Assembly (NCBI GenBank): GCA_963725095.1
Contig: CAVRXJ010000017.1
Coordinates: forward strand, 1,158 to 65,157
Length of the DNA: 64,000 nucleotides
From: an uncultured Acidobacteriota bacterium
Lineage (GTDB): Bacteria > Acidobacteriota > Thermoanaerobaculia > UBA5066 > Gp7-AA6
Direction of reading: 5' to 3'
Position numbers and translations under genes: made by a program. Positions 2,322 through 64,000 of this stretch are shown here, in pieces. Each line of letters starts with the position of its first letter. Position 1 is the first letter of the stretch. A model generated the notes under the pieces. That model saw only the letters and a program-made list of their open reading frames with translations, did not search any database and was not told the origin of the DNA.

Positions 2322-3294
2322 CGGCGGGTGGCTTCGGCCGGCGCGAGAGGTGACGGTGTCTCTCGAGCTCGAAGCTGCAGCGGCGAAACGGCGCGTCGCC
2401 TTCCCCGGCGAGATACCCGATCGCCTCGCCGACCGCCTCGACCGCTCCGAGCGTGACCAGGATCGGCAGCAGCTTCGGAATCATGCGGCCTCGCCCGTTT
2501 CGGGCGATGATCGCGAGGCGACGGCGCAGCACGAGGAAAGGGACGAGCGGCGCCCCGGCCGCGTAGGCGAGGCGCCTCGCCGCGGACCAGCCGGAGTGGC
2601 GCGCCCTGGCGGCGCCGTACAGCCGTGCGCCATGGTACGCGGCGGCGAGGTTCGACGGCAGGCGTGAGATGTTCTGGTGGCTCGATCGCGCGACTTCCGA
2701 AAGGCGCAGGAGGACGCCACGCCGGTTCAGGTCGGCGTGCAGGATCCCCTCGCACTCGAGCATGGCGGCGAGGCCGTCGCCGTACTCCATCAGGAGCGCC
2801 GTCTTGTAGCTCGTGTGGTGCGAGGCCAGCTTGGGAACCTCGCCTCCGGCGGCCGGAGCGACCCAGGGCCCGAAGTCCACGTAGATGTGGGCCCAGCTCA
2901 ACAGGCTCTCCGGGTTGTCGTTCTCGATGAGCCCGCCCGCGGCTCCACAGGGCCGCGCGTGTTCCTCGAGGAGCGCCTCGGCCCATCCGGAGCCGGGATA
3001 CGAGTGCTCCTCGGCGTAGGCCACCACCGGCGCGGTGGCGCGGCGGACGCCCGCCGCGACGGCCCCCCCCGTCGAGCGGATGGGTCCAAACTCGACGATC
3101 TCGTGCCGGAGGAACGCGTCGAAGTCCCGTTCGCATCCGGCCAGGCGCGCGCGCGACGGCGCCACGACGATGAGCTCGAGCCGGTCCCGGATCGTTTGAG
3201 CCTTCAGGTGCGCGATCGTTTTTTGGATGCGGTCGTAGCCGTCCGGAGTGACCGTCACCACCGTCATCGAGGGGAGGGCACGGGAGGCGCTCAT
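2314..3294 (-). CDS. GT-A-fold glycosyltransferase-like protein
   Basis: ATG 3294 (MSASRALPSMTVVTVTPDGYDRIQKTIAHLKAQTIRDRLELIVVAP...) lies within the artefactual 1936-aa ORF. GAGAGGGAAG lies upstream of the ATG. The 326-aa frame is intact to the stop at 2314. Confidence 0.6.
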   Translation of the reverse strand: MSASRALPSMTVVTVTPDGYDRIQKTIAHLKAQTIRDRLELIVVAPSRARLAGCERDFDAFLRHEIVEFGPIRSTGGAVAAGVRRATAPVVAYAEEHSYPGSGWAEALLEEHARPCGAAGGLIENDNPESLLSWAHIYVDFGPWVAPAAGGEVPKLASHHTSYKTALLMEYGDGLAAMLECEGILHADLNRRGVLLRLSEVARSSHQNISRLPSNLAAAYHGARLYGAARARHSGWSAARRLAYAAGAPLVPFLVLRRRLAIIARNGRGRMIPKLLPILVTLGAVEAVGEAIGYLAGEGDAPFRRCSFELERHRHLSRRPKPPADA

Positions 3295-4338
3295 CGGGCT
3301 TCCCTCTCGCGCCGCCCCGGAGGACCGAGAACCGAGCGAGACGGGCGTCCCCGCCCGGGCGGAATCGGCGGCCGCGAGCGCCGCGGCGAGGGCCGCCCGG
3401 CCATCCTCGAGGGTGGCACTGCCGCGCGCGCCGGTCGCGGTGGCCTTTGCAAATTCACGCCACTGGCGCCGGTAGGACGAGGGATACGCTCCGCCGTTCC
3501 ATCGGTCGGAAACCAGACCCGCCATCAGAGCCGCGCCGCTCCAGAATCCGAGCGTCCCGCCCCGCAGGCCAAACGAATCGTAGAAGGAGATCGCCAGACG
3601 CCCGTTCTCCCCGTCGAGCTCGAGCCGGTTTCGGCCAATGCCGTCTTCGGCCGCGCCGATGCGGAGGTCGGCGTGCGCGCCGTTCGACATCGACGCGGTC
3701 ACGTTCGCTCGCGAGCCGTCCGGGGCGACGTCGGCCTCGATCTCGACGATTTCGGCCTGCAGGAGGAATCGGAGCAGATCGAAATGATGGACGCCGAGGT
3801 CGAGGAGCGGGTCGCCGCCCCAGTCCGGCTGGCTGCGCCAGTGATCGTCGGGGGAAGGGAACGCCTGGGTGAAGACGGTGCGGACCCGCCGGACGCGGCC
3901 CAGACGCCCGGATGTCACCATCCGGCGGGCCTCCCGCGCCAGCCGGTGGGCGCGCAGATTGAAGCCGATCGTCGCGACGGCTTGCCGGCGGGCGCCCTCC
4001 TCCACGAGGGCGTCGGCCTCGCTCATCGAGAGCGCGATCGGCTTTTCCAGGAACAGGTGCTTTCCCGCCCGCAGAACCTCGAGCCCGATCCGCGCGTGGT
4101 CCCGAGGGGGCACGCACACGGCGACGGCTTCGACGTCGGACCCGATCAGCGAAGAGGCGTCGGCGTAGAAGGTCGGGATCCGAGGCCCGTCGGCGAGCGC
4201 GCGGCACCGCGCCGGGTCGAGGTCCGTCAGGGCGACGACCGCGATCTCCGGGACCCGCCGCAGGGCGGGCATGTGAAACCGCTCCACGACCGATCCGCAG
4301 CCGACGAATCCGAGACGGAGGGGTCCTGCCGGCGTCAC
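3295..4338 (-). CDS. Gfo/Idh/MocA family NAD(P)-dependent oxidoreductase (no in-frame stop before the next gene)
   Basis: GTG 4338 overlaps the upstream stop (GTGA). Rossmann N-term LRLGFVGCGSVVERFHMPAL, then EKPIALS and a typical C-terminal domain ending ..DSARAGTPVSL. The frame runs straight into ATG 3294. A TGA overlapping that ATG (3291-3293) exists only in another frame. Confidence 0.8.
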
Positions 4339-5358
4339 GAGTCGAGCGGGCGCACGGGGCGCAGCCGCCGGGCTGCCGGGCGCAGCGCCATGGCGGCGGC
4401 GGTCGCGAGAAAGGCCGTCCCGCTGTAGGCGTAATAGAGCAGCTGCATCACGAACGCCCGCAGCGCAAACACCGCTCCGCGCCGGTCGAGGAAGAACCGG
4501 TAGAGGGGGCGGTTGATCCAGGCGATCGCGGCGAGCAGCGCGGGCGCCAGGACGAGGAACCGGGGATCGGCGAGGCCGAGGAGGCACGCCAGCAGCGCGG
4601 CGGCGAGCAGCGTCGCGCTCGCGCGCTCGGACTTCTTCAGGTTGAGCTCGTTGGTGAGCGTGCGCCTCTGCGAGCGCGAGCCTGGTCCAGGGGACCGCGC
4701 GGCAGAAGATATCGGCGCGCACGAGCGAACCGAGGGTCCAGCGCTTCAGGTGTGTGCCCTGAATCGCCGGGTCGAGCCGGATGGCGCACCCGGCGTCGGT
4801 CAGGCGGTAGCCGAGCTCGATGTCGTGCATGCAACGCAGATCCTCGTCGAACCCGCCGACCGAGGCGAGGGCGCTCGCCCGCACGGCGCCCAGACCCGTC
4901 CAAAACGTCGAGACGCGGCCGGCCCCGGCCGTGTGCACGTGGTGGTGGAGGAGGTTCTTGTACTGCGAGCAGAAGTTGCCCTCGGCGGGCGAGTCGTCGT
5001 ACGCACCGAAAACCGCCGCGACCGCGGGCTCCTGGTCGAAGAGCCGGAGGACTCTGGCCGGCGCGTCGGCGTGGATCTCCACGTCGGCGTCCACGAAGAG
5101 CAGGATGTCGGCCGTGGTCTCCCGTGCGCCGGCGTTGCGCGCGGCCGACGGGCCGCGGTTGTCCGGGAGACGCACGACGCGCGCCCCTCGCGCCGTGGCG
5201 ATCGCGGCGCTCTCATCGGTCGAGCCGTCGTCGCACACGACGACCTCGAGGGCCGGCTCCCGGACGTCGGCCAGAGCGGCGAGGCAACGGTCCAGGTGTG
5301 CGGCCCCGTTGTGGACCGGAACGATGGCCGCGATCCGCACCGGCCGGCCCGGGTTCAC
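4335..5358 (-). CDS. glycosyltransferase family 2 with C-terminal membrane segment (one apparent frameshift near 4675)
   Basis: GTG 5358 overlaps the upstream stop (GTGA). Motifs: IAAIVPVHNGAAHLDRCL, VCDDGSTDES, FVDADV. After ..ADIFCRAVPWTR the frame must shift to read TLTNELNLKKSERASATLLAAALLACLLGL...YYAYSGTAFLATAAAMAL..* ending at TGA 4335. Confidence 0.8.
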
Positions 5359-11965: not shown

Positions 11966-14414
11966 TCACCTCTGTACCTGGAATTGCGAGGACGTGGCCA
12001 CGAGATAGAGCGCCTGCTGGGCGCGCTGGAGCGTGTTCGTGCTGGAGACCGCGGAGACGGCCGTCATGATGGCCGTCTTCATTTCGGCCGACATCGTCCC
12101 GTGCATCAACGACCGGTTCAGCTCCGTGACCAGCGACTCGGGGCTCGCGGCGAGGGCCTGCAGCTTCGAGAGGTCGAGCGACGTGCCGCTCGGCGCATTG
12201 TTCGAGGTGTTGATCGCGCCGAAGGCCATGGTGTTGACGAAGTTCGCGCGCCGCAGGGCGGTCGTCGCCGAGAGGATCCCGAACTCGGGACCGGCCATGT
12301 CGGTCGTGTCCGGCACGAGGTAGTCGGAGGGGTAGTAGGAGAAGACGCTCGTCGGCCTCCAGACGTCCTGGCCCATGTTGGAGGACTGCGGGTTCAGGTA
12401 CCCGTCGCTTGCGGCCGCGCCGTTGGCCGAGCGCGCGTTGAAGGCGCGCAGGATCTGGTTGATGAACTGGACGGGCTCCTTGAGCCGGCCGTAGGTCAGG
12501 TCGGGCTTGGAGTCTCCGCGCGCTTCCGGGTCGAGCAGGATCGCCTGGACGACGGCCTTGAGGTCGCCCCGCACGCCGGCGCCGTTGTTGTCGAAGGCGG
12601 CGGCGACGCGCTGGACGTAGGCGGGGCTCGGGTTGGAAGTGACGAGCGCGCGGATCAGGTGGATCGAGACGAAGGGCCCGACGTTGGCGTGGTTGAAGAT
12701 GTTGTCGAGGGCGTCGTTCAGGTCCTGAACGGCCGTCTGTCCGGCGGGCAGCGTGATGCCGTTCAAGAGCTGCTTCGTGCCGGTCTCGTGGTTGCTCGCC
12801 TGCAGGACCATCGGGTCGAGGTAGTTGGGCGTGTCGGGATCCGGGCGGGGCGCGCTCTTCCAGCCCGTGAACACGCGGGCGAATCCCGTCACGGTGTCCT
12901 GGTCGTAGGTCGGGATCGCCTGGTCGTCGTCGTCGGTCTGCACGGTCCCGTCGGGGTTGAACTTCTCCAGCCCGATCGAGAAGAGCTGCAGGATCTCGCG
13001 CGCGTAGTTCTCGTTCGGGTTGGACTTGGTCGACGTGATCATGTCGAGGTAGCGGCCCATCGCCGGGTTCAGCGTGATCTCGTAGAGCAGCTGCCGGAAG
13101 TTGCCGAACGCGTTGCGGTCCAGGATCTGCAGGTACGGCGTCATCCAGCTCGGCTGGTTCAGGTCGTTGCCGGAGATCACGATCATGCGGTGGAGCGCCC
13201 AGGCCACGCGCTGGCGCAGCTGGTCGGATGCCGGTCATCGCGTTGGTGTAGAAGCGGCGCTGCAGGAGGTACATCGAGTAGTTGTCGCGCTGACAGTTGG
13301 AATCGCAATCCACGGGCACCGACGAGGGCCAGAGCGCCAGCGTCGGATATCCGGTCGACGGCGTCGTGAACTGCGCGTTCAGCCAGGCCGGGATGCCGAC
13401 CGTGCGCACCCGGTAGATCAGGTACTCCGTCGGTCCCCAGGTCGCCTGCTCGAGGAGCCGCAGGATGTCGCCGTTGAAGGTCTTCGAGAGGAAGACCGCC
13501 ATCTGGCCGCGCGTGACGCTGCTGCCGGGGCAGTACATGCCCGGATTGCAGCCGCCCGTGACGCCCTCGTTGGCGAGCTGCTCGATCCAGTTGGCGAAGA
13601 GCAGCGTCGTCGGAACGTCGGTGAAGATCCCGACCGGCGGCGGCGGCACGAAGCTCGAACCGTGCTCCGCCCGGAGGAGGAAGACCGCCATCGCGTCCCG
13701 GGTCACGTTCTGGGTGGGGCAGTACTTTCCGCCGCCGCATCCGGTCGTGATGCCTTCGGCGGCGAGCTGCTCGATCCAGGGGGCGAAGGGCGTGCCCGTC
13801 GTCACGTCCGTGAACTTGGTTCCGGTCGCCGGCGGCGGCGAGTAGCCCGAGCCGTGCTTGCTCCGCAGGAGGAAGACCGCCATCTCCCCGCGCGTGACGA
13901 GATTGTCCGGGCAGTAGTTTCCGCTGCCGCAGCCCGGTCGTGATGCCCTTGCGGGTGATCTTCTCGATGGCGTCGTGGAAGAGGTAGCTCTGCGGCACGT
14001 CGTTGTAGTTGGCAAACCAGCCGCCGGGAAGCGTCGCCGTCGAGGCGTCCGGGTTCGTCAGGAGGACGTCGCTGACGGTGCCGGCGGTCGCCGGCCGGCG
14101 TCGTGGCACCGATCTTCGCCGCGTTCGTGTAGGACAGGCCCGTGGCGAAGCCGGCTCCGACCTTGAGCGTGGCCCCCGACTGCATCCGGTATCCGGTCAC
14201 GACGATCGGTGTTCCTCCCGAGGCGGGGCCGGAGCTCGGCGTCAGGGACGACACCTGCGGCGCCGGCGGCGGCAGCGCCGGCATGAACTGGCCGGCCGCG
14301 ACGCCGTTGCCGAGGAGGCCGGCGAGGCCGAGCAACCCGAGCGAGCAGGAAGTCGCGAAGCCCTGCGACGGCCTCGCGGCCGACCCTCCCGTCGCGCCCT
14401 TGTGTCCCTTTTCA
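11966..14414 (-). CDS. secreted IPT/TIG + 3x SLH-like + DUF1800 domain protein (about four apparent frameshifts)
   Basis: ATG 14414 follows GGAGG; the frame slips within ATGAAAAGGG. Segments are a signal peptide (..SCSLGLLGLAGLLGNGVAAGQ), IPT/TIG (VSSLTPSSGPASGGTPIVVTGY..), three SLH-like repeats (F.DV..F..WIE.L..EGIT.GCG.G.YCP...VTR..MAVFL) and DUF1800 (WALHRMIVISGNDLNQPSW..YAREILQLFSIG..HETG..). Frame switches near 14405, 14100, 13940 and 13215. The stop abuts the DUF1501 start. Confidence 0.8.
13470..14020 (-). other. triple SLH-like, Cys-containing repeat module (protein-level repeat, N-terminal half of the DUF1800 gene)
   Basis: Three ~50-aa repeats, e.g. FTDVTTGTPFAPWIEQLAAEGITTGCGGGKYCPTQNVTRDAMAVFLLRAEHG. 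Confidence 0.6.
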
Positions 14415-14896: not shown

Positions 14897-17201
14897 CTAC
14901 TGCAGACCGAAGGTGTTGGTGATGAACTTCGCCATCTCGCCGCGCGTGACCGTGTTGGTCGGGCAGTAGATCGGTTTTCCGTTGGCGGTTCCGCAGCCCT
15001 GCGTGATGCCCTCCGCCTCGAGCTCCTCCATCCATTTCGCGAGAAAGGTCGAGGCCGTCACGTCGTCGAACACGGCTCCCGTCGCGGCGGGCGGCGCAAA
15101 CGCGGAACCGTTCTTTCCGCGAAGCAGGAACACCGACATGCCGTCGCGGGTGACGGGCGAGGTCGGGCAGTAGGGAGGCGGAGCGCCGCCGCCGCAGCCG
15201 GTCGAGATTCCTTCGCGGCCGAACTGCTCCATCCACTTGGCGAGGAACGTCCCCGCGGTCACGTCGCTGAAGACGTCGCCCTGCGCGGCGGGAGGATCGT
15301 AGGCGCTGCCGTGCTTCCCCCGGAGGATGAAGACGGCCATCGCGTCGCGCGTCACCGGGTCGTCGGGGCAGTAGTTGCCGCCGCCGCAGCCGGTCGTGAT
15401 GCCGTTTCGCGCGACGGCGACGACGGCGTTGTGGAAGAGGTAGGCGGGCGGCACGTCGGCGAAGTCCACCTGCACTTTCGACGCGGCCGGCCCCGAAGCG
15501 CATCCTCCCGTCCCGGTCTCGACGACCGAAAGGCTCATCGTGCGTTCCCGGCGAAGCCGCGGAGAACAGGATCTGGTTGGAGCCCTGCCCCGAGGTGATG
15601 GAGCCGCCGGTCAGCGTCCAGGCGTAGGTGGAGCCGGCGTGGGAGGGAGCGCTCGCCGCCACTCCGGTCGCGCCGACGACGACGGACTTGGGAACGGTGA
15701 CGACCGGGGTGGACGGGATCGGATGGACGGTGACCGTCGCGGCGCCGGAGGTCTGCGTCTGTCCCAGCCCGTCGGTGACACGGACGTCGTAGCTGCCGGA
15801 GTTGCCCGTGCCGCTCGGGTCGATCGTCAGCGTGTCGGTCGCCGTTCCCGAGAGCGGCGCGCCGTCGGAGAGGTCCAGGCCTCCTTTTCGCCAGCGGAAC
15901 GAGAGCGTCGGCTGTCCGGAAGCGGTGACGGAGAGGGAGACGGCGGCCCCGGCGCAGACGGACTGGCCCACGGGGTTCGACACGTTCAGCGGGACACGCT
16001 CGTAGGCCCCCATGTCGACGATCGGTGCCGTCCCCGAGCCGGTGTCGGCGGTCAGGGGATCGTCGAAGAAGCGGGGCAGCCCCGCAAGATCCGTCGCGAG
16101 CCCTGCGGCCGCGGCGTTGCTTCCCGCGTCGACCGCCGGTGAGCCGGCGCCCAACCGGTAGTCTCCGGCGCCCGCGTTCTGGAAGAGGGGGTTGGCGTCG
16201 ATGAGCCCGGTTCCGCCGACCGGGCTCCCGTGGACGTCGCTGTACGACACCGAGAAGCCCGCCGAGAATCCGAGGAAGACGTCGCCGGCGCCGTTGCCGA
16301 ACAGAATGGAGTTGGCGATCGTGTTGTTGGGCCCTCCCTGCAGCGCCAGACCGTAGCCCGGATTTCCGGTGAAGGTGCAGTTGGTGAAGGTCGCTCCATC
16401 CTGGGCGATGGACCCGCCGTTGGGGGAGTTGCCGACGACGAGGCAGTTCTTCGCGGCAACCTTGTTGGCGTCGAAGCCGCCGCCGCGCCCGGCTCCCGTC
16501 GCGTTCCCCTTGAAGACCACACCCTGAATCAGGAGCGCCGCGCCGGAGGCGGAGGAGAGACCGCCCCCGGCAATGCCCGAAGAGTTGGATTCGAAGACGC
16601 ACGCCGTCAGCGTCGGCGCGCCCGACTCGACGCGCACGGCGCCCCCGCGGTCCACCGCGAAGTTGCCCGAGAAGTCCAGGTGCGAGAGCGTCGGGCTGCC
16701 GCCGTTGACCAGCAATCCCGCCGCCGCGCAGGTCTGTCGGCGCGACGCCGTCGGCATAGCCCCGGATGACGGCGAAGCCGTCGAGAATCGCGGTCGACGA
16801 AACGGTCCCGTCGGCCGTCACGACGTGGTAGCTGTTGTCCGTCGCGGCCGCGGTGTTGATCTCGCCCGAGAGCGTCGTCACGTGCGCCGCCGGATCGCGC
16901 TCCGACCGAAGTCGTCTCGGTGCCGTCGAAGCCGCCGTAGACCGCGATACCGTTCTTGAGGGCGAAGCTGACGCCGCGGTCCGAGGTGTGTGGCTTGTAG
17001 GTCGCCGCCGCGACCCAGATCTCGCTTCCCGCGGAAGCCGCCGCGAGCGCCGCCTGGAGATCCGAGTACGCCGTCGTCCAGGTCGCGCCGTCGTGCGCGG
17101 GTCCGGGCGCCGCGGGGTTGACGTAGAGGACGGCGGCGCCCGCGCCGCGCGGCGAGCGCCAGCGAGGACAGTGTCAGAAAGGCGCGTCGCAGAAGGGTCA
17201 A
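14897..17201 (-). CDS. secreted right-handed beta-helix (choice-of-anchor-Q-like) protein with Ig-like domains and a C-terminal 3x SLH-like module (about four apparent frameshifts)
   Basis: TTG 17201 (MTLLRRAFLTLSSLALAA). N-term ..VLYVNPAAPGPAHDGATWTTAYSDLQAALAAASAGSEIWVAAATYKP..FALKNGIAVYGGFDGTE. Parallel beta-helix repeats (..GGAVRVESGAPTLTACVFESNSS..GGGLSS..). Ig-like parts (..TLSFRWRKGG..YDVRVTD..; YAWTLTGGSITSGQGSNQILF). The intact C-terminal ORF 14897-15538 carries three SLH-like repeats. Switches near 17140, 16890, 16745 and 15540. Confidence 0.75.
14900..15651 (-). other. Ig-like + 3x SLH-like C-terminal cassette (paralogous to 17242-17952)
   Basis: YAWTLTGGSITSGQGSNQILFSAASPGT-MSLSVVETGTGGCASGPAASKVQVDFADVPP.. 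is followed by three F.DV...GI(T/S)TGCG..YCP..VTR..M.VF.LR repeats. Confidence 0.6.
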
Positions 17202-17238: not shown

Positions 17239-19525
17239 TCAGGGCAGGTCGAACGTGCGGGTCAGGAACGCGGCCATCTCGCCTCTGGTCAGCGACTTGT
17301 CCGGGCAGAAGTTCCCGCCGCCGCAGCCTCCCGTGATCCCCTCCGCCTTGAGGTCTTCAATCCATGCGGCGAGGAACGTTCCCGTCGAGACGTCCGCGAA
17401 CGCCGTTCCCGTGGCCGCCGGTGGCGTGTAGGCGGGGGTGTGCTTTCCGCGGAGCAGAAAGACCGCCGCCGCCGACCGGTTCAGGGCGTCGTCGGGGCAG
17501 AACTTCCCTCCTCCGCATCCGGTCGTGTAGCCCTCGTTGGCGAAGGCTTCGATCCAGTCGCCGAGGAAGGTCCCGAGCGGCACGTCGGAGAACTTGGTGC
17601 CCGTGGCCGCGGGAGGCTTGTAGCCCGCCGGCTTGGAAGCGCGCAGGATGAAAACGGCCATCTGCGAGCGCGTCACGAGGCCCTCGGGGCAGAAGTTGCC
17701 CGCGCCGCAGCCGGTCGTGATCCCGCTGCGCGCGACGGCGACGATCGGGTGATGGAAGAAGTGGGAGGGCGGCGCGTCCAGGAAGTCGACCTGGACCTTG
17801 GCGGTGCCGGCCGGTGAGCTGCAGGCCGCCCCGAGGGAGTCGACGACCGAGAGGTTCATCGTCGTTCCCGCGGCGCCGCTCGAGAAAGTGATCTGGCTCG
17901 TTCCCTGCCCGCCGGTGATCGAGCCTCCCTGGAGGGTCCAGGCGTAGCCGTGCGCGGGCCGCTCCGGAGCGCTCGCCGACGGATCCGGGAGTCGCCGGAG
18001 GCAACGGACTCGGGCGCCTCAATCGCCGGCGCCGGCGGCGGGCACTGGATCCAGGCGAAGGCGGCGGCGGCGTCGATGCGCCCGTAGCCCGCCGCGTCGT
18101 TGGGGACGTCGCCGGCCGCATGGCCTCCGCAGGTGTCGGCGGCGGTCTTGGGCACGGCTGTCCCCTCGAGGATCGCCTGAAGCGCGTCGACGTTGCCCGA
18201 GAGCACCGGCGCGGCCGAGAGGAGCAGCGCCAGGGCGCCGGCCGCGTGCGGGGCGGAGGCGCTGGTGCCGTCGATGATTCCGTAGGCCGCGTCGACGGCA
18301 CAGCTGCGCACATTTTCGCCGGGCGCAACGACGTTGGGCTTGGGCGACGCGCCTTCGCCGGGGCCGCGGCTGGAGTAGTCGGTGAGCACGTCGCTCTCGT
18401 CGGTGGCGCCGACGGTGATCGACGCGTCGTAGATCCCGGGGACTTCGATCGTGTCGCAGTCGGGCCCGTCGTTGCCGGCGGAGACGACGACCGCGATTCC
18501 GGCCGCCCGGAGGTTCTCGACCGCCGTGCGGAGAATGTCGGGGGTCGTGCACCCCTCCTCCGGCGGGCAGTCCCAGGAGTTCGTGATCACGTCGGGCGCG
18601 AGGCTGGGATCGGGGTTGGTCCCCGCCAGATTCGTCGGTGCGAGAAACCACTGGAAGCACTCCAGCGTACCTCGCGGGCGTCCCGGTCCCTTCGTCCATG
18701 TTTCGGCAGCCGATCCAGCGCGCCGCCGGGGCCATCCCCACGCGGTTGCTCCCGCCGTCGTCGCCGACCGCGACCCCGATCGTCTGCGTTCCGTGGCCGT
18801 CGTCGTCGCAGGGTGCCGTCAGGTTCGAGCCGCAGAAGTTCCCGCTCACGGCGTTGTGGACGGCGTCGTGCCAGTTGTAGTTGTGGTTGACGGACGTTCC
18901 GTTCCATCCGCGGTACTGGGGCTTCAACGCGGGATGGTCCCACTCGATCCCCGTGTCGGCGCCTCCGATGACGACGCCCTGGCCCGTGAACCCGGCCGCC
19001 CAGAGGTCCGGAGCTCCCAGCAGAGCGAGGTTCCACGGCGTGGCGGCCGTTCGCAGGACCGCCGCGGCGGCGTCGGGGCGCGGGATCGGCCAGTCGCGCG
19101 CGCATCGCGGGGTTGCGTTCGACGCGGGCGACCTCGGGCCGGCGGGCGACGGACTCGAGCGACACCGGTCCGACCTGCGCGCGGATCATGTTGGCGACCC
19201 AGTAGGGCTCCGGCTGCGCGCCCTGCGACTGGAGCCAGCGGATGAGCGGCTGCTGCGTGCGCCGGGCGGCTTCGTTCAGGCGCTCGAAGACATAGCGCCC
19301 CTTCTCGGCCTTGCTCGCCAGGGACCGGGCCGCCGACAGGTCGGCCTGCTCGGCGAGGACGATCAGGACGTCCTGGCTCGCGCCGGCCGGAGCGGCGAGC
19401 AGTCGCGCGTCGACTTTCTCCTTCCACGAAGCGGGAAGTGTCGCGGCGCGGGCAGAGCAGAGCGCGGCCGCAGCCGACAGAACGGCGGCGGAGACCATGC
19501 GCCGAAAGGGAAGGCTGAACCTCAA
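17239..19525 (-). CDS. secreted subtilisin-like serine protease (peptidase S8) with Ig-like + 3x SLH-like C-terminal cassette (about three apparent frameshifts)
   Basis: Signal peptide (alternative ATG at 19498: MVSAAVLSAAAALCSARAA) and an I9-like propeptide. Catalytic motifs: VVIGGADTGIEWDHP (Asp), DDDGHGTQTIGV (His), GTSASAPHAAG (Ser). C-terminal ORF 17239-17859 has three SLH-like repeats. Switches near 19085, 18665 and 17990. Confidence 0.85.
17242..17952 (-). other. Ig-like + 3x SLH-like C-terminal cassette (paralogous to 14900-15651)
   Basis: YAWTLQGGSITGGQGTSQITFSSGAAGTTMNLSVVDSLGAACSSPAGTAKVQVDFLDAPP.. is followed by three SLH-like repeats with GCG.G.(F/Y)CP. Confidence 0.6.
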
Positions 19526-39408: not shown

Positions 39409-42179
<2,771 letters not shown>

Positions 42180-51820: not shown

Positions 51821-51895
<75 letters not shown>

Positions 51896-51911: not shown

Positions 51912-51987
51912 AGGCGCTTAGCTCAGCTGGGAGAGCGCTACCTTCACACGGTAGAGGTCAACGGTTCGATCCCGTTAGCGCCTACCA
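51912..51987 (+). tRNA. tRNA-Val (anticodon CAC)
   Basis: Acceptor AGGCGCT/AGCGCCT, D arm GCTC-AGCTGGGA-GAGC, anticodon arm CTACC-TTCACAC-GGTAG, T arm AACGG-TTCGATC-CCGTT, discriminator A, encoded CCA. Confidence 0.9.
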
Positions 51988-52074: not shown

Positions 52075-54019
52075 GTGACGATCACGCTGCCGGACGGATC
52101 GAAGCGAGCCGTCCCGAAGGGAACGACCGTCCGCCAGGTGGCGGAGGGCGATCGGGCCGCGCCTCGCCCGGGACGCCTGGGCCGGGAAGCTCGACGGCCG
52201 GGTCGTCGACCTGATCACGCCGATCGACGTCGGACGCCTCGATCGAGATCATCACGGCGAAGTCGCCCGACGCCGTTCCGATCTACCGCCACTCGACGGC
52301 GCACCTGACGGCCCAGGCGGTCAAGCGCCTCTTCCCGGACGTCCAGATCGGCATCGGCCCGCCGATCGAGAACGGCTACTACTACGACTTCAACCCGAAG
52401 CGGCCCTTCACGCCCGACGACCTCGCGGCGATCGAGGCGGAGATGCGCAAGATCATCGCGCGAGGACCTTCCGATCGAGCGGATGGACATGCCGATCGGC
52501 GAGGCGATCGCCATCTTCGAGAAGCAGGCCGACGACCTGAAGGTGGAGATCGCGCGCGGGATTCCGGAAGGGGAGCGGGTCTCCTGCTACCGGCAGGGCG
52601 AGTTCGTCGACCTCTGCCGCGGCCCGCACGTGGCCTCGACGGGAAGGCTCGGCGTCTTCAAGCTGACGCACACGGCGGGCGCCTACTGGAAGGGCGACGA
52701 GAAGAACCCGATGCTCCAGCGCATCTACGGGGCGTCGTTCCTGACCCAGAAGGAGCTCGACGACCACCTGAAGCAGGTCGGAGGAGGCGAAGGCCCGCGA
52801 CCACCGCAAGCTCGGCAAGGAGCTCGAGCTCTTCGTCGTTCCATCCGTGGGCGCCGGCGTCGCCGTTCTTCCTCCCGAAGGGGGCGGCCCTCTACAACGG
52901 CCTGATCGACGTTCCTGCGCTCGGAGTACCGGCGGCGCGGCTACGAGGAGGTCGTGACGCCGCAGATCTTCGACGTCGAGCTCTTCAAGACCTCCGGCCA
53001 CTACGCCAACTACCGCGAGAACATGTTCTTCACGGAGGTCGACGAGCGGGAGTACGGCGTCAAGCCGATGAACTGCCCCGGCCACTACCTGCTCTTCCAG
53101 GCGCGGCACTGGTCCTACCGCGACCTGCCGGTGCGGTATGGCCGACTTCGGCCGGCTCCACCGCTACGAGCTGTCGGGCGTCACCGCGGGGCTGACGCGC
53201 GTGCGCACGTTCTCGCAGGACGACGCCCACATCTTCACGCCCTTCGAGAAGGTCGAGGCCGAGATCTTCGCGTTCCTCGAGTTCCTGGACTTCGTCTACG
53301 GGGCGTTCGGCTTCGAGGACGTGGAAATCTCGCTCGGCCTGCGGCCCGAGAAGCGCATCGGCGCGGACGCGTTCTGGGACCGGGGCGAGGCGGCGCTCGA
53401 GGCGGCGCTGAAGGCCGCGGGCCGCCCCTTCGTGGTGACGCCCGGCGACGGCGCCTTCTACGGGCCCAAGATCGACTTCCGGGTGAAAGACGCCATCGGA
53501 CGGCCCTGGCAGCTCGGCACGATCCAGTGCGACTTCGCGCAGCCGGAGAACTTCGACCTGACCTACATCGGCGAGGACGGAAAGCCGCACCGGCCGGTCG
53601 TTCTCCACCGGGCGATCCTCGGATCGCTCGAGCGTTTTCTCGGGATCCTGATCGAGCACACGGCCGGGAACTTCCCGTTCTGGATCGCCCCGGTTCAGGC
53701 CGTGCGTCCTGCCGGTCTCCGACCGGTTCGCGGAGGCCGCCCGCGCGGCCGCCGCGCGCCTCCAGGCGGCGGGGCTGCGCGTCGAGACGGACGACCGCAA
53801 CGAGAAGCTCGGGCGCCCGGATCCGGCAGGCGGAGCTGCAGAAGACCCCGTGCATGCTCGTCGTCGGGGAGAAGGAGGCGGCCGCCGGGACGCGTGTCCG
53901 TCCGCCTGCGCCACGGCGGAGATGCCGGTACGATGTCGGTAGACCAGTTTGTCGCGGCCGCGAGGGCCGCGATCGAAGGCAGGCAACGTGAGCTTTCCGC
54001 GGAGGTGAAAGATCGATAA
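52075..54019 (+). CDS. thrS: threonine--tRNA ligase (about ten apparent frameshifts)
   Basis: GTG 52075. TGS domain [25 protein letters not shown]. ..[36 protein letters not shown].., ..[37 protein letters not shown].., ..[12 protein letters not shown].., ..[22 protein letters not shown] / [32 protein letters not shown].., ..[18 protein letters not shown].., anticodon-binding end ..[17 protein letters not shown]. These blocks alternate between all three frames. Confidence 0.85.
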
Positions 54020-55190: not shown

Positions 55191-55194
55191 GAGT

Positions 55195-56258
55195 TTGTCT
55201 CCGGACAGGTCGGACGATCCGGTCGCTCCCGTCCTCGCGGCCTTTCGCGAGGAAGAGGGCCGGGGTGTCGGCTCGCGGGCCGACTTCGAGCGGGTCAAGG
55301 GCCGTTTTCTCGGGCGGGAGACGGGGCCTCGTGCCGGCGCTCTTCGCCGGGGTCAAGGACCTGCCGCCCGCCGAGCGGGCGGGCTTCGGCGCCCGCGCCA
55401 ACGCCGCCAAGCGCGAGATCGAGCTGGCGATCGAGCGCCTCGGCGAGGCGGTTTCCCGGCGCGAAGCGCGAGGCGCGCGAATCGGCGGGCGCCGTCGACG
55501 TCACGCTGCCGGCGCGGCGTCCGCGGTCCGGAGGGCTCCATCCGATCACGGTCGTGCGGCGGCGCATCGAGCGGATCTTCCTCCGCATGGGGTACGCGAT
55601 CGCCGACGGGCCGGAGCTCGAGAACGACCACTACAACTTCGAGGCGTTGAACTTCCCGCCCGAGCATCCGGCGCGGGACTCGCAGGACACGCTGATGGTG
55701 GACCGCAAGGCGGCCTCGCCGCTCCTGCTGCGGACGCACACCTCACCGGTCCAGATCCGCGAGATGAAGAAGCGCGGCGCGCCGCTGCGCGTCCTCGTTC
55801 CCGGGCGCGTCTACCGGAAGGACGAGGTGGACGCGACCCACTCGCCCGTCTTCCATCAGGCCGAGGCGCTCGTCGTGGACCGCGGCATCGCGCTCGCGGA
55901 CCTGAAGGGCACCGTCGAGGCGTTTCTCGAGGCGCTCTTCGGGCGCGGGACGCGCACGCGCTTCATCCCGACCTTCTTTCCCTTCGTCGAGCCGGGAGTG
56001 GACGTGGCGATGAGCTGCATCTTCTGCAAGGGGTCGGGCTGCCGCAAGTGCAAGGAGTCGGGCTGGATCGAGATCATGGGCGCCGGCATGGTCCACCCGC
56101 TCGTGTTGCGAGGCGTCGGGATCGACCCGGAGGAGTACTCGGGCTTCGCGTTCGGCCTGGGCCTCGACCGCGTCGCCCTGCTGCTCTACGGGTTCCCCGA
56201 TCTGCGGCTCCTGTTCGAGGGGGACGAGCGCTTCCTCTCGCAATTCGCCAACGAATGA
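55195..56258 (+). CDS. pheS: phenylalanine--tRNA ligase alpha subunit (two apparent frameshifts near 55325 and 55475)
   Basis: TTG 55195. The catalytic core is an intact ORF (55554-56258): [95 protein letters not shown]... Confidence 0.85.
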
Positions 56259-59023: not shown

Positions 59024-59176
59024 GTCGGCAACCCCTCGGGGGGCACGAAGTGAATCGATCGGTCGAATCGAAATTCCCTGGTGCCGGCAAGTTCGAACCC
59101 GCTCTTGCGGAGAGACTTCCGCATCATCGTGTAGCCGCCGTCGACTTTCGGCGTCCCCGGGCAGAGGGGAGCCGAC
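59024..59176 (+). ncRNA. candidate 6S RNA (ssrS-like rod with central bubble), or a structured rny leader
   Basis: The whole zapA-rny spacer folds by hand into an interrupted helix. Pairings: GUCGGC 59024-29 / GCCGAC 59171-76; CCCCUC 59032-37 / GAGGGG 59164-69; GGGG 59040-43 / CCCC 59155-58; CGAAG 59046-50 / CUUCG-type 59145-50; further pairs to ~59062/59135. An asymmetric internal loop spans ~59063-82 vs 59123-34. An inner stem pairs 59083-94 with 59114-22. The apical hairpin is CCGC-UCUU-GCGG (59099-59110). Position downstream of zapA matches E. coli ssrS. Confidence 0.4.
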
Positions 59177-60747
59177 ATGAGCACATCTCTCGCGATCGCC
59201 GTCGCGGCGGGGCTGGCCATAGCCGCCGTCCTGGGCGGGATCGTCCTTTTCACCGTTGCGCCGGAAGCTCCAGCAGGAGCGGGCCGGGATCCGGACGGAG
59301 GCCGAGCGCATCCGGACGGAGGCCACGAAGGCCGCCGAGGCGAAGCTGCGCGAGGCCTCCATCGAAGCCAAGGAGAAGGTCCTCGCCGCGCGGGCGGAGT
59401 TCGAGAAGACGGTCCAGGCCCGGCGGCAGGAGATCACGGCGCTCGAAAACCGGGTCGTCGCCAAGGAGGAGAACCTCGACCGCAAGCTCTCGGCGCAGGA
59501 GCGGCGGGAGGAGGAATTCACCCGCAAGGAGAAGGGCCTCTCCGACCAGCAGAAGAAGCTCGACGAGATGCAGGGCGAGATCCAGAAGCTCATCGACGAG
59601 CAGCGCAAGCGCCTCGAGCAGATCTCGGGGCTGACCGCGGTGGACGCCAAGCGCGACCTGGTCAAGTCGATCGAGAACGAGGCGCGCGTCGAGGGGGCCG
59701 GCCTGATGCGGCGCATCGAGGAGGAGGCCCTGGAGCAGTCGACACAGAAGGCACGGCACATCATCGGCATGGCGATCCAGCGGCTGGCCTCCGACGTCGT
59801 CGTCGAGGCGACGGTGTCGGTCGTCGAGCTTCCCTCCGATGACCTGAAGGGCCGGATCATCGGCCGCGAGGGCCGCAACATCCGGGCGCTCGAGGCCGCC
59901 ACGGGCGTCGACCTGATCATCGACGACACGCCGGAGGCCATCGTCATCTCGGCCTTCGAGCCGCTGCGCCGGGAAGTGGCCCGCCTCGCGCTCGAGAAGC
60001 TGATCGTGGACGGACGGATTCACCCCGCCCGGATCGAGGAGATCGTCGAGAAGGTGCGCTCGGAGCTCTGGGAACGGATCCGACAGGAAGGCGAGGCGAC
60101 CGCGCTCGAATTCGGCATCCCGGACCTTCATCCGGAGCTGATCAAGCTGCTCGGGCGCCTCAAGTTCCGGACGTCCTACGGCCAGAACGTGCTCCAGCAT
60201 TCCAAGGAAGTCGCGTGGCTCGCGACCAACATGGCGGCCGAGCTCGGCGGCAACGTCGAGGTGGCCAAGCGCGCCGGCCTGCTCCACGACATCGGCAAGG
60301 CGATCGACCGGGAGATGGAAGGCACGCACCTGGAGCTCGGGCGCGAGGTCCTGAAGAAGTTCGGCGAGCTGAACGAAGTCATCCACGCCATGGAGTGCCA
60401 CCACGGCGACTACGAGCCGCGTTCGCTCGAAGCCGTGCTCGTCAACGGCGCCGACGCCCTGTCGGCCGCCCGACCCGGGCGCGCGCCGGGAGATCCTGGA
60501 GACGTACGTCAAGCGCCTGGAGAAGCTCGAGCACATCGCCGACGGCTTCAAGGGCGTGCAGAAGGCGTTCGCCGTCCAGGCGGGACGGGAGCTGCGCATC
60601 ATCGTCGAGGCCAACCGCGTCACCGACGACGAGGCCCTCTGGCTCTCCCGCGACGTGGCCAAGAAGATCGAGTCGGAGCTGCAGTACCCCGGCCAGATCC
60701 GGGTGACGGTCATCCGCGAGACCCGGGCCGTGGAGTACGCGAGATGA
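59177..60747 (+). CDS. rny: ribonuclease Y (two apparent frameshifts near 59260 and 60480)
   Basis: N-terminal [27 protein letters not shown]. Coiled-coil region, KH ([26 protein letters not shown]), HD (..[21 protein letters not shown]). C-term ..[53 protein letters not shown]. Confidence 0.9.
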
Positions 60748-60830
60748 GTCCCTCGTCCGTTGTCCGTGGTCCGTCGTCGATCGGAGACCAACAGCCAAGG
60801 CCCAAGGACCAAGGACCAAGGACCAGGGAC
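60748..60830. repeat. imperfect palindrome built from two opposed arrays of 7-nt tandem repeats (rny-ymdB spacer)
   Basis: The 5' arm is GTCCCTC GTCCGTT GTCCGTG GTCCGTC GTCGATC. The 3' arm is CCAAGGC CCAAGGA CCAAGGA CCAAGGA CCAGGGA C. The arms pair at about 25 of 31 positions, with mismatches recurring once per repeat unit. Confidence 0.75.
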
Positions 60831-60850
60831 TCGCGATACAGGGGCACGAC

Positions 60851-61631
60851 GTGAATATCCTCTTCGTCGGCGACGTCGTCGGCTCCCCGGGGCGACGGGC
60901 GCTGCAGGAGGCGCTGCTCGGCGTCATCGACCGGCGCAAGATCGACTTCACGATCGTCAACGTCGAGAATGCCGCCGGCGGCTTCGGCCTGACCAACGAG
61001 CTCTTCGCCGAGCTCTCGAAGATGCCGATCGACGTCTTTTCTTCCGGAAACCACATCTGGGACAAGAAGGAGATCTACGACGAGTTGAACGCCTCGGACC
61101 GCCTCCTGCGCCCGGCCAACTACCCGCCGGGAAACCCCGGCAGGGGCGCCACGGTGCAGACGACCGCCGCGGGGATCCCGGTCGGCGTCCTGAACCTGCA
61201 GGGGCAGGTGTTCATGCCGGCGCACGCCGATTCGCCGTTTCGCGTCGCCGACGAGGAGCTCGCCAAGATGGACGCGCGGGTGATCATCGTCGACATGCAC
61301 GCCGAGGCGACCTCGGAAAAGGCGGCGATCGGCTGGTACCTGGACGGCCGCGTGTCGGCCGTGCTCGGGACGCACACGCACGTGCCGACCGCGGACGAGA
61401 CGATCCGGCCGGGCGGGACCGCCTACCTCTCCGACGTCGGGATGACCGGGCGCCTACGAGGGCATCATCGGGTTCTCCAAGGACCGCATCATCGAGAAGT
61501 TCCTGTCGCAGACGCCGCGCTCCTTCGAGACCGCCAAGCGCGACATCCGTCTTTCCGGCGTCGTGATCGGCGTGGACGAGGCGACGGGGAAGGCGACGTC
61601 GATCGAGCGGGTGCAGGTCCGAGTGGATTGA
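60851..61631 (+). CDS. ymdB: YmdB-like metallophosphoesterase (TIGR00282; 2',3'-cyclic-nucleotide 2'-phosphodiesterase family; one apparent frameshift near 61450)
   Basis: GTG 60851. [14 protein letters not shown].., [40 protein letters not shown]. Then in another frame [58 protein letters not shown]. Sits downstream of rny as in Bacillus. Confidence 0.85.
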
Positions 61632-61634
61632 GGA

Positions 61635-61709
61635 ATCGGGTGATCGAGCGATCGGATGATCGGGTGATCGGGATGCCGTTCGATGACCCGATGGCCCGAT
61701 GACCCGATC
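61635..61709. repeat. imperfect palindrome built from opposed 8-nt tandem repeats, overlapping the GT2 start codon
   Basis: The 5' arm is GGGTGATC GAGCGATC GGATGATC GGGTGATC (61638-61669). The 3' arm is GATGACCC GATGGCCC GATGACCC GATC (61682-61709). About 27 of 34 positions can pair. The 3' units place ATGs at 61683, 61691 and 61699 in three different frames. Confidence 0.75.
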
Positions 61710-62544
61710 TCCGCTGGCCTCTCGGCCATCGTGCCGACCTTCAACGAAGAGGGAAACATCGGCGACTGCCTGGCGTCGCTCGCGTTCGCCGACGAGATCC
61801 TGGTGGTCGATTCCTTCTCGACGGACCGGACCGTCGAAATCGCGAGCGCCTTCCCCAGGACGCGCGTCCTGCAGCACGAGTACTTCGGCAACGGCCCGCA
61901 GTGCAACTGGGCGATGGAGCGCGCCGCCCATCCGTGGATCCTGATCGTCGACGCCGACGAGCGCGTGACACCGGAGCTCGCGCGCGAGATCGAGGAGCTG
62001 CTCGCGCGCGGGCCGGCCGCCGACGCCTACCGGGTGCGGCGCGACGACGTCTTCTTCGGCCGGGTGCTGCGCCATGGCGGACTCGGCGCGCACGGGCTCG
62101 TCCGGCTCGCCCGAAAGGGCAGCGCCTCCTATCCCAACCGGCGCGTGCATGCCGACATGGAGGTCCGAGGGCCGGCGCCCGTGCTGTCCGGCCGCCTGAC
62201 GCACTACACGTACCGTTCGTTCCCCGACTACGTCGGCAAGCTCGCCCGCTACGCGGAGTGGGGCGCCGCGGACCGATTCCGGGCGGGGCGCCGGGCGGGT
62301 TTCTTCGCGATCGCTTTCCATCCCGCCTGGCGCTTCCTGCGGATGTACCTGCTGCAGGCGGGTTTTCTCGACGGCGCCGCGGGCCTCGTGGTCTGCGGCC
62401 TGCAGGGGTATTGCACGTTCCTGAAGTACGCGAGGCTCTGGGAGTGGACGCGGATGGAGGCTCGGGGCGAGAGCGTGCCGCTGCCGGCGTTCGACGGGGA
62501 GCCGCCGCGCGCCGGATGCGGCCGGAGCGAGGGAGCCGCTGTGA
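61683..62544 (+). CDS. glycosyltransferase family 2 (3' end uncertain: no in-frame stop before bcp)
   Basis: ATG 61683. LSAIVPTFNEEGNIGDCLASL, LVVDSFSTDRT, ILIVDADERV, C-terminal ..LDGAAGLVVCGLQGYCTFLKYARLWEW... The frame runs into the bcp ATG. The nearest plausible stop (TGA 62542-44) is in another frame. Confidence 0.75.
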
Positions 62545-62570
62545 GATTCTTCTGGCAGAAGGAGCTCCCC

Positions 62571-63010
62571 ATGTTGAACGTCGGCGATCCGGCTCCCGAT
62601 TTCGACGTCCCGGACCACACCGGGCGCCCGGCGCCGCCTCTCGGACTACCGGGGCCGGACCGTCGTTCTCTGGTTCTATCCGATGGCCGACACTCCCGGC
62701 TGAACGATCGAGGGCCGCGGGTTCCGCGACCTGGCCGCCGGTTACGAGACGAAGGGCGCCGTCATCCTCGGCGTCTCCTTCGACACCGATGGCGAAGAAC
62801 GCCGCCTTCGCCGCCAAGTACGACTTCCCGTTTTCTCTGCTGTGCGACACGGAGAGAAAGATCGGAATGGCCTACGGCGCCTGCGACTCCCCGAAGGCGC
62901 GGTTCGCCGAGCGCATCACGTACGTGATCGGACCCGACGGAAAGATCCTGCAGGCCCACCCGAAGGTCTCGGTCAAGTCCCATCCGCAGGAAATCCTCGC
63001 GAGCCTCTAG
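62571..63010 (+). CDS. bcp: Bcp/PrxQ-type peroxiredoxin with in-frame TGA at the peroxidatic Cys position (candidate selenoprotein; two further apparent frameshifts near 62630 and 62788)
   Basis: AAGGAG lies 6 nt before ATG 62571. MLNVGDPAPDFDVPDHTG.. / ..RLSDYRGRTVVLWFYPMADTPG[TGA 62701-03]TIEGRGFRDLAAGYETKGAVILGVSFDT / ..AAFAAKYDFPFSLLCDTERKIGMAYG..RITYVIGPDGKILQAHPKVSVKSHPQEILASL* with TAG at 63008-10. Confidence 0.7.
62712..62732 (+). promoter_or_regulatory. SECIS-like hairpin 11 nt downstream of the in-frame UGA
   Basis: GGGCCGCGG (62712-20) / CCGCGACCU (62724-32). There are 8 pairs with one C-A mismatch and a terminal G-U. The apical loop is GUU, or GGUUC if the closing pair opens. Confidence 0.45.
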
Positions 63011-64000
63011 TCGCGGGGATCGGGCGCGCCTCGGCCAGAGTGTCGGCGTAGAAGGGGATCGCGCGGTCCGCGAACTTCCGGCCGGTGAATTCGAGCGCCC
63101 GCGCCCGAGCCGCGAGCCCATAGCGGCGCCGCAGCGGCTCGGAGGCGGCGACCGCTCTCGAGCGCGGGCGCGAGGCCCGGCGCGTCGCGCGCGATCGCGC
63201 CCTCGACCCCGTCGGTCATCAGGTCTCGACGCCGGGCACGCTCCAGCGCGACCACCGGAAGGCCCGAGGCCATCGCCTCGAGGATGGCCCGCTGCCCCTG
63301 GTCGGCGCCCGAGGCGGTGAAGAGAAAGACGTCGCAGAGACGGTAGAGGTCCGGCAGGGCCTCCTCCTGATAGCCGAGCCAGAAGTTGCGGTCGGCCGCG
63401 CCGAGCGCCGCGGCCCTCTCCTTGAGGGCCGGCATGTGCTCGCCGTGCCCGACGTGAACCAGGCAGACGCCGGGCAGGCGCGCGGCCGCCGCGATCGCCT
63501 CCTCGTGCCCGCGCCCCCGCGACATCTTGCCGACCGTGGCCACGAGCAGGGGTCCGGCCGGAAGGCCGAAGCGCCGCCGCAGCTCGGGCGAGCCTCGCGC
63601 CCGGCCGGAACCGCTCGCCGTCGACGACCGGGGAGAGCACCGGGCCCGGGCGTCCGAAGCGGCCGGCAATCGCGCGGTTGGCGTAGGCGAAGGCGTCGGT
63701 GCGGCGGAAGACGAGCGCCGTCAAGGGGTCCGGGCGCGCGTGCCGGATGTGGTGCAGCGTGCGGACGAGGGCAACTCCCGTGGACCGGACGGCGAGGGCG
63801 GCCAGGGTGTGGTCGTAGGAACGGTGCGCGTGGACCAGGTCGAACCTCTCGCGGACGAGGGTTTCCCGCAGGCGCCGCGCCTGCTCCGCGTAGTCCAGGG
63901 GCCCGCGCGGCTTGCGCAGCAGGGGCCGCGCCCAGCCGAGCCGCCTCCAGGCGCCCGGAGAGGAGGCTTTCTCCGATGAAGCCGAACTGCGCCTCGACGC
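62973..64000 (-). CDS. glycosyltransferase family 4 (GT-B), 5'-truncated by the window edge (2-3 apparent frameshifts; 3' end 62973 or 63007)
   Basis: ..LVHAHRSYDHTLAALAV..LHHIRHARPDPLTALVFRRTDAFAYANRAIAGRF..VVDGERFRPG / ..ELRRRFGLPAGPLLVATVGKMSRGRGHEEAI..LVHVGHGEH..CDVFLFTASGADQGQRAILEAMASGLPVVA.. / ..SEPLRRRYGLAARARALEFTGRKFADRAIPFYADTL... Convergent with bcp and overlapping its 3' end. Confidence 0.7.

Follow-up and report, generated by a model that had tools for sequence, protein, structure and literature searches.

Peroxiredoxins in which selenocysteine (Sec) is carried in a TxxU motif (PF00578) are an established family of bacterial selenoproteins, reported from Deltaproteobacteria and Clostridia together with many homologues that have cysteine in its place (PMC1794560, PMC2398784, PMC13188914). 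Twelve TxxU peroxiredoxin genes were known in 2006, three of them in Anaeromyxobacter, and the GOS metagenomes contain 253 copies; some Acidobacteria carry selenoproteins, and the group is listed with three selenoprotein families (PMC1794560, PMC2398784, PMC13188914). One Sec-peroxiredoxin, PrxU of Eubacterium acidaminophilum, has been verified biochemically (PMC1794560, PMC2398784, PMC13188914). In the literature that we searched, no paper linked the Thermoanaerobaculia to selenocysteine.

The window, by which we mean the whole 64,000-nucleotide stretch of DNA analysed here, has a GC content of 70%. At 62571-63010, on the forward strand, it carries a gene that, to judge from sequence comparison, very probably encodes a thioredoxin-fold peroxiredoxin of the Bcp/PrxQ type with selenocysteine as its peroxidatic residue. 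An initial annotation had put the gene forward as a candidate selenoprotein, a reading that is now supported by the presence of the same TGA in syntenic orthologues and by a hairpin specific to the Sec forms. The copy in the window is no different in kind from the TxxU peroxiredoxins described by Zhang, Gladyshev and co-workers, and like them it combines the AhpC/TSA fold with Sec for the peroxidatic Cys of PxxxTxxU. It differs from them in coming from an uncultured relative of the Thermoanaerobaculia (Acidobacteriota) and in belonging to a sub-clade without the resolving Cys at +5.

The gene runs from an ATG at 62571 to a TAG at 63008-63010 on the forward strand, and a Shine-Dalgarno-like AAGGAG, read from the sequence, lies 6 nt before the ATG (62559-62564, forward strand). 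The frame can be followed from ATG to TAG only by way of three reading frames and by reading through a TGA at 62701-62703. With two spurious bases removed, the product is 145 amino acids long, as are most of the database homologues that match it best; these are 60-70% identical to it and are named "peroxiredoxin Q/BCP" by JGI. The Pfam AhpC-TSA profile (PF00578) matches residues 4-126 at 116.1 bits (cut-off 26) and the Redoxin profile scores 70.3 bits. The PxxxTxxC/U motif reads P37-M-A-D-T41-P-G-U44, and P37, T41, G43, T45 and R114 are invariant in an alignment of 17 sequences (A1). The protein is thus classed as a peroxiredoxin on its AhpC/TSA domain match and on an active-site motif accompanied by the conserved Arg.

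Assignment within the peroxiredoxins is less sharp, the NCBIfam models that rank highest being PrxQ at 109 bits (cut-off 260) and Bcp (PRK09437) at 91.5 bits (cut-off 140). PrxU of E. acidaminophilum, reportedly described by Sohling et al. in 2001, belongs to a Sec-containing, thioredoxin-dependent family (NF040737) made by UGA recoding, and its likeness to the window protein is that both are Sec peroxiredoxins; against the 233-position PrxU model the window protein scores 46.8 bits (cut-off 270), which places it in another peroxiredoxin subfamily and not with the PrxU equivalogs. The window protein shares its length class (about 145-156 residues) and the FYPxxxTPGCTxE context with Cys-type Bcp/PrxQ proteins such as E. 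coli Bcp (PRK09437) and Deinococcus PrxQ (NF053650), but unlike these it has Sec for the peroxidatic Cys and Arg for the resolving Cys at +5. The Arg (UTIEGRG) is common to the window and to the homologues L001, L002, L028 and L062, whereas Cys occupies the position in most Cys forms and in many of the remaining Sec forms. The CxxxxC spacing of atypical 2-Cys Bcp/PrxQ proteins is therefore absent from the window protein, there being no Cys five residues after U44. Two other cysteines are candidate resolving residues: Cys91 (62843-62845, forward strand), which lies in the clade-invariant LLCD motif and is itself invariant in A1, and Cys104 of the sequence YGACD (62882-62884, forward strand), which is present in most, though not all, of the A1 homologues.

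The TGA at 62701-62703 (forward strand) is in frame with Bcp-like sequence on either side, and we read it as the Sec codon for the peroxidatic residue of PxxxTxxU, residue 44, on the basis of column identity and of the TGA in orthologues. Alignment with 16 homologues places the codon, as the initial annotation had proposed, in the very column that holds the peroxidatic Cys of FYPxADTPG[C]TxEG. Cys stands opposite the TGA in 14 of the 16, and the remaining two, which are the closest, are called W and L. From the TGA to the TAG there are 101 Bcp-like codons, in agreement with the earlier estimate of about 100, and the protein over this part is 85-87% identical to that of L028, indicating that it is under protein-coding constraint.

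The two exceptional homologues bear out the expectation that gene callers mishandle such genes, since both entries carry the wrong residue at the catalytic site. In the W-called homologue (P0002/L002, on a metagenome contig) the DNA is TGA, in an otherwise intact gene of 145 codons with the same downstream hairpin. In the L-called homologue (P0001/L001) the DNA is TTA, a seldom-used codon that differs from TGA by one base and from TGY by two. This TTA (900-902 of an ENA contig, in the second-closest homologue) precedes a perfect 9-bp stem of the SECIS type (z = -2.85), and it reflects either a TGA that was misread in sequencing or a Sec gene that was recently inactivated.

A pattern scan for FYPxxDTPG-TGA-T over one genome per species found matches in at least 120 species genomes. 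Among the matches listed, nearly all run 93-116 Bcp codons past the TGA, and carriers that are in culture are represented by the Anaeromyxobacter locus L072 and by L060 of Myxococcus sp. RHSTA-1-4. The matches span Acidobacteriota, Myxococcota, Gemmatimonadota, Eremiobacterota, Binatia, Planctomycetota and others; the initial annotation was correct in noting Sec-peroxiredoxins from some anaerobes but understated their spread.

The best two among the matches listed are L028 (DATKAE01; 119 of 145 residues identical) and L062 (JBOGJK01; 109 of 139), both from metagenome-assembled genomes of Thermoanaerobaculia. Both have TGA at the same codon, and the unusual sequence FYPMADTPGUT.EGRGFRD is common to them and to the window. 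The window is collinear with L028 and L062 over the gene order rny-ymdB-GT2-bcp-GT4, at 75-84% nucleotide identity, and the genes that neighbour bcp are intact in both. The sole lesion common to all three orthologues is the TGA. The window Bcp is 82% and 78% identical to the closest Sec forms, as against 70% to the closest Cys form. In L028 an interval of about 2.1 kb (reverse-complement 2538-4387) separates ymdB from GT2 and holds two extra genes that are absent from the window and from L062. The gene for a Cys-form homologue that is 70% identical (P0003, JGI 3300067032) likewise follows immediately after a gene for a family-2 glycosyltransferase, a context that suggests exchange of Sec and Cys among orthologues at one conserved locus.

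The paradigm for bacterial decoding of UGA as Sec is E. coli fdhF. Its SECIS is a hairpin that closely follows the UGA within the coding sequence and carries G-U in its apical loop; a spacer of about 11 nt precedes the upper stem, to which SelB binds. The window has a SECIS-like hairpin at 62712-62732 (forward strand), with a 5' arm at 62712-62720, a GUU loop at 62721-62723 and a 3' arm at 62724-62732. Outward from the loop, a perfect core of 5 bp is followed by a C.A mismatch (62715/62729) and then by three outer pairs, and the hairpin is embedded in the codons for G-R-G-F-R-D-L. The arms and loop are as they had been described; the distance from the UGA, given before as 11 nt, is 8 nt to the outer stem and 12 nt to the perfect core, and the GUU loop lies 18-20 nt past the UGA. 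Like the fdhF SECIS, the hairpin is inside the coding sequence, 3' of the UGA, and has G-U in its apical loop and a spacer of similar length; unlike it, the hairpin has a three-base GUU triloop and a GC-rich stem of 5-9 bp, and no bulged U is evident. L028 and L001 have U-A at the site of the C.A mismatch, and L062, L002 and several other Sec forms share the GGC/C.A variant of the window.

Taken by itself the window hairpin is no better than shuffled sequence. The 40 nt have a minimum free energy of -13.1 kcal/mol (z = +0.61), a value equalled or bettered by 146 of 200 shuffles, and the 40-nt minimum-energy fold is a different, competing pairing. In DNA of 70% GC, a z of +0.61 means that the hairpin alone neither supports nor refutes a SECIS, and only when it is compared with other sequences does it carry weight. 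Rfam was scanned with gathering thresholds over the whole window and permissively over 62560-63020, and no SECIS family was matched, the only matches being at chance level; the sequence of the bcp hairpin is family-specific, and Rfam appears to be without a model for it.

For the comparison we used 119 Sec forms among the matches listed in the genome scan, pairing positions +12 to +20 with +32 to +24 around a loop at +21 to +23, and Cys forms collected with the identical pattern except for TGY instead of TGA; the Sec set was drawn from genomes and the Cys set from metagenomes. GUU occupies the loop in 90 of the 119 Sec forms and in 22 of 106 Cys forms (Fisher p = 7e-17), and the mean contiguous stem counted from the loop is 4.9 bp in Sec forms versus 1.4 bp in Cys forms. 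Codon choice follows the hairpin as well. Among forms sharing the peptide T.E[GA].GFRD, Gly(+6) is GGG in 63 of 71 Sec forms versus 2 of 18 Cys forms (p = 5e-10), and the third base of this GGG is the G of the loop. Gly(+4) is the rare codon GGT, whose U is the partner of the A in GAC, in 19 of the 20 Sec forms with EGCGFRD.

Pairing is maintained while the sequence of the stem changes. In the 119-row alignment 68.7% of the cells are paired, versus 34-54% when the partner columns are slid, with 19 and 15 double-sided changes at two pairs of the core. For example, CGCGG/CCGCG is replaced by UCCGG/CCGGG, and by CCCA/UGG in forms whose peptide itself differs. A covariation score as high as the observed one was not obtained in any of 500 shuffles.

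The Cys forms nearest to the window keep part of this structure. Four of the five closest retain 5-8 stem pairs, and the GGG codon is lost in four of the five. The nearest, L245 (P0011) and L248 (P0102), have 8 contiguous pairs of the Sec-type stem (codons +4 to +9 counted from the Cys codon); the loop G is lost in L247, L248 and L249, and GTT is kept in L245. The stem in these genes may reflect coding constraint, ancestry, or a fossil SECIS that dates from an earlier Sec state. The GUU hairpin is missing from about a dozen Sec forms (e.g. L004, L008, L010, L042, L048, L063, L094, L112 and L114). These have an alternative hairpin, GGAUUC and GAAUCC around a loop CGUGAUC, at about +18 to +40 and so about 6 nt further 3', which indicates that the family has two SECIS designs.

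The distribution of loop, stem and codons points to a family-specific SECIS-like hairpin that is kept in Sec forms and largely missing from Cys forms, and it supports the interpretation of the hairpin as a SECIS. The proposal that the window hairpin is a SECIS is accordingly sustained by the family-wide loop, covariation and codon bias, and not by the folding of the window hairpin taken alone.

On the fdhF/SelB paradigm of Sec decoding and on general peroxiredoxin chemistry, the gene would be expressed and its product would act as follows. The UGA at 62701-62703 would not be taken as a stop in translation; the hairpin 8-12 nt downstream, with its apical G-U(-U), would bring SelB-GTP-Sec-tRNA(Sec) to the A site of the ribosome, and translation would proceed for 101 codons beyond Sec. 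The selenolate at position 44 would then attack the peroxide and be converted to a selenenic acid. Because Arg replaces the usual resolving Cys at +5, the selenenic acid would be resolved by another protein thiol (Cys91 or Cys104) or directly by thioredoxin. For this organism we infer SelB-dependent decoding, the incorporation of selenium, the reductant and the resolving residue from these known systems, and the Sec-decoding trait of the organism only from the conserved UGA and SECIS.

The window gene appears to be a member of a U-T-x-E-G-R-G sub-clade of Sec-PrxQ without the CxxxxC resolving Cys. A single family-specific SECIS, the GUU triloop written into the codons for G-F-R, appears to be kept across at least 10 phyla, including many aerobic soil lineages, and Sec-PrxQ may be under-annotated because gene callers truncate such genes or mistranslate them with W or L at the active site. 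It is tempting, but decidedly tentative, to combine these points into a single proposal, namely that the sub-clade consists of "1-Sec" peroxiredoxins that form a selenenylsulfide with the Cys of LLCD and that Sec-PrxQ is far commoner outside anaerobes than annotated; we regard the two together as possible but doubtful.

Neither tRNA-Sec nor selA, selB or selD was found in the 64-kb window (ARAGORN, Pfam, and tblastn with E. coli SelA, SelB and SelD), and the Sec machinery was likewise not found in 0.9 Mb of other Sec-bcp loci (ARAGORN, and tblastn with the same three proteins). The sole match of E. coli SelB in the window search was the GTPase domain of infB, in two frames. Apart from two adjacent tRNA-Val genes at 51821-51895 and 51912-51987 (forward strand), with anticodons GAC and CAC, no RNA genes were detected in the window.

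The lack of sel genes and of tRNA-Sec in the window, and a SECIS stem weakened by C.A where L028 and L001 have U-A, would both be expected if the gene were of the Sec type by descent only, the organism having lost the Sec machinery so that translation terminates at codon 44. However, 64 kb covers only a small part of a genome, the codons downstream of the TGA are conserved at the protein level, the GUU loop and the 5-bp core are intact, and the GGC/C.A variant occurs also in L062, L002 and several other Sec forms. We consider such a silent relic very unlikely, and prefer the reading in which the UGA is translated as Sec.

The frame of bcp is broken at two places besides the TGA. The breaks were placed by DNA alignment with five orthologous or closely related genes, with which tblastn using the L028 protein agrees, and they coincide with the two further frame corrections that had been called for. 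The first is one extra G in the GGG run at 62622-62624 (forward strand), where all five aligned orthologues have GG and tblastn changes frame at 62623-62624. The second is one extra base within 62786-62792 (forward strand), where the orthologues are one base shorter and tblastn changes frame between 62784 and 62795; most simply the extra base is the A at 62789, the removal of which restores ...SFDTVAKNAAF.... Alternative frame-corrected readings, ...TGRPARLSDY... and ...FDTMAKN..., were replaced by ...TGARRRLSDY... and ...FDTVAKN... on the basis of the DNA alignment.

Breaks of this sort are frequent in the window. Over 59135-63940, tblastn with the intact L028 proteins gave seven frame changes in five genes, or about 1.5 per kb (rny 2, ymdB 1, bcp 2, GT4 2, GT2 0), and the same genes are uninterrupted in L028 and L062. 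Elsewhere Pfam matches are cut off at the ends of open reading frames in infB, thrS, pheS, a sigma-54 activator, an ABC ATPase and ymdB; the GTP_EFTU profile is matched in infB at positions 88-183 of 188 only, and ymdB is split over two frames. The indel-affected genes between 35000 and 64000 include infB (39412-41900, reverse strand), thrS (53072-54016, forward), pheS (55191-56255, forward), rny (59135-60744, forward), ymdB (60851-61628, forward) and GT4 (63024-63940, reverse). Gene calls anywhere in the window need frameshift-aware handling. The open reading frame of GT2 (61683-62570, forward strand) has no in-frame stop before the ATG of bcp, GT2 and bcp are in one frame, and a TGA at 62542-62544, near the 3' end of GT2, lies in another frame. 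The GT2 orthologue in L028 stops about 35 nt before bcp, and the run-on of GT2 into bcp is likely to be one more indel near the 3' end of GT2, rather than a GT2-Bcp fusion.

Three lesions of the reading frame within 440 bp might suggest a former bcp decaying by a nonsense mutation and two frameshifts. Yet frameshifts are equally dense in the essential genes infB, thrS, pheS and rny of the window, the "nonsense" codon is common to intact orthologues, and protein identity to L028 after the TGA (85-87%) compares with a nucleotide identity of about 75-84% over the region. By this alignment evidence the two frameshifts in bcp are artefacts of assembly within an indel problem that extends over the window, and not gene decay, and a pseudogene is even less probable than a silent relic; a functional Sec gene remains the preferred interpretation.

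An assembly with about 1.5 frame breaks per kb is error-prone, and the initial annotation had cautioned that the TGA could be a base error for TGC or TGT in an ordinary Cys-type Bcp. The errors observed, however, are indels: in about 1,550 codons compared with L028 (59135-63940) there is no in-frame stop besides the TGA of bcp, which indicates that the error profile is one of indels and not of substitutions. The TGA is also found at the same codon in the two syntenic orthologues (L028 and L062) and in L002, and at least 120 species genomes match the scan; furthermore, the closest relatives of the gene are the Sec forms (82% and 78%), the closest Cys form being 70% identical. The caution can be set aside, and a base-call error is a remote explanation for the TGA, more so than decay of the gene.

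TGA is the normal stop for 12 of 21 genes in the window, among them rny and ymdB, which end at the same C-termini as their orthologues, and its use as an ordinary terminator elsewhere indicates that recoding is specific to the site and does not reflect a change of genetic code. Reassignment of UGA to Trp or Gly, or a leaky UGA, with a residue other than Sec at the site, would fit the W that a gene caller placed in the L002 homologue, but it has next to no probability given the conserved C-termini at which TGA ends genes and the location of this TGA in a redox-active Cys column with a conserved hairpin downstream. At 70% GC, the genome is also unlike the lineages in which UGA is known to have been reassigned.

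Standard gene callers would split, truncate or mistranslate the window bcp, and the gene calls for a translation exception and for annotation as a selenoprotein. The gene marks its host, a relative of the Thermoanaerobaculia, as a probable user of selenocysteine, and it is a further indication that soil and sediment phyla commonly carry Sec-peroxiredoxins of the Bcp/PrxQ type. The type of selenoprotein is already known and widespread, and the understanding of Sec decoding and of peroxiredoxin chemistry is unchanged by it.

Elsewhere in the window, two paralogous repeat proteins are encoded on the reverse strand at 14900-15610 and 17242-18018, with repeats of the form F.DV....F...I......GIT.GCG.G.(F/Y)CP. 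They have a weak match to the S-layer homology domain and lie near a DUF1800 gene (11969-13234).
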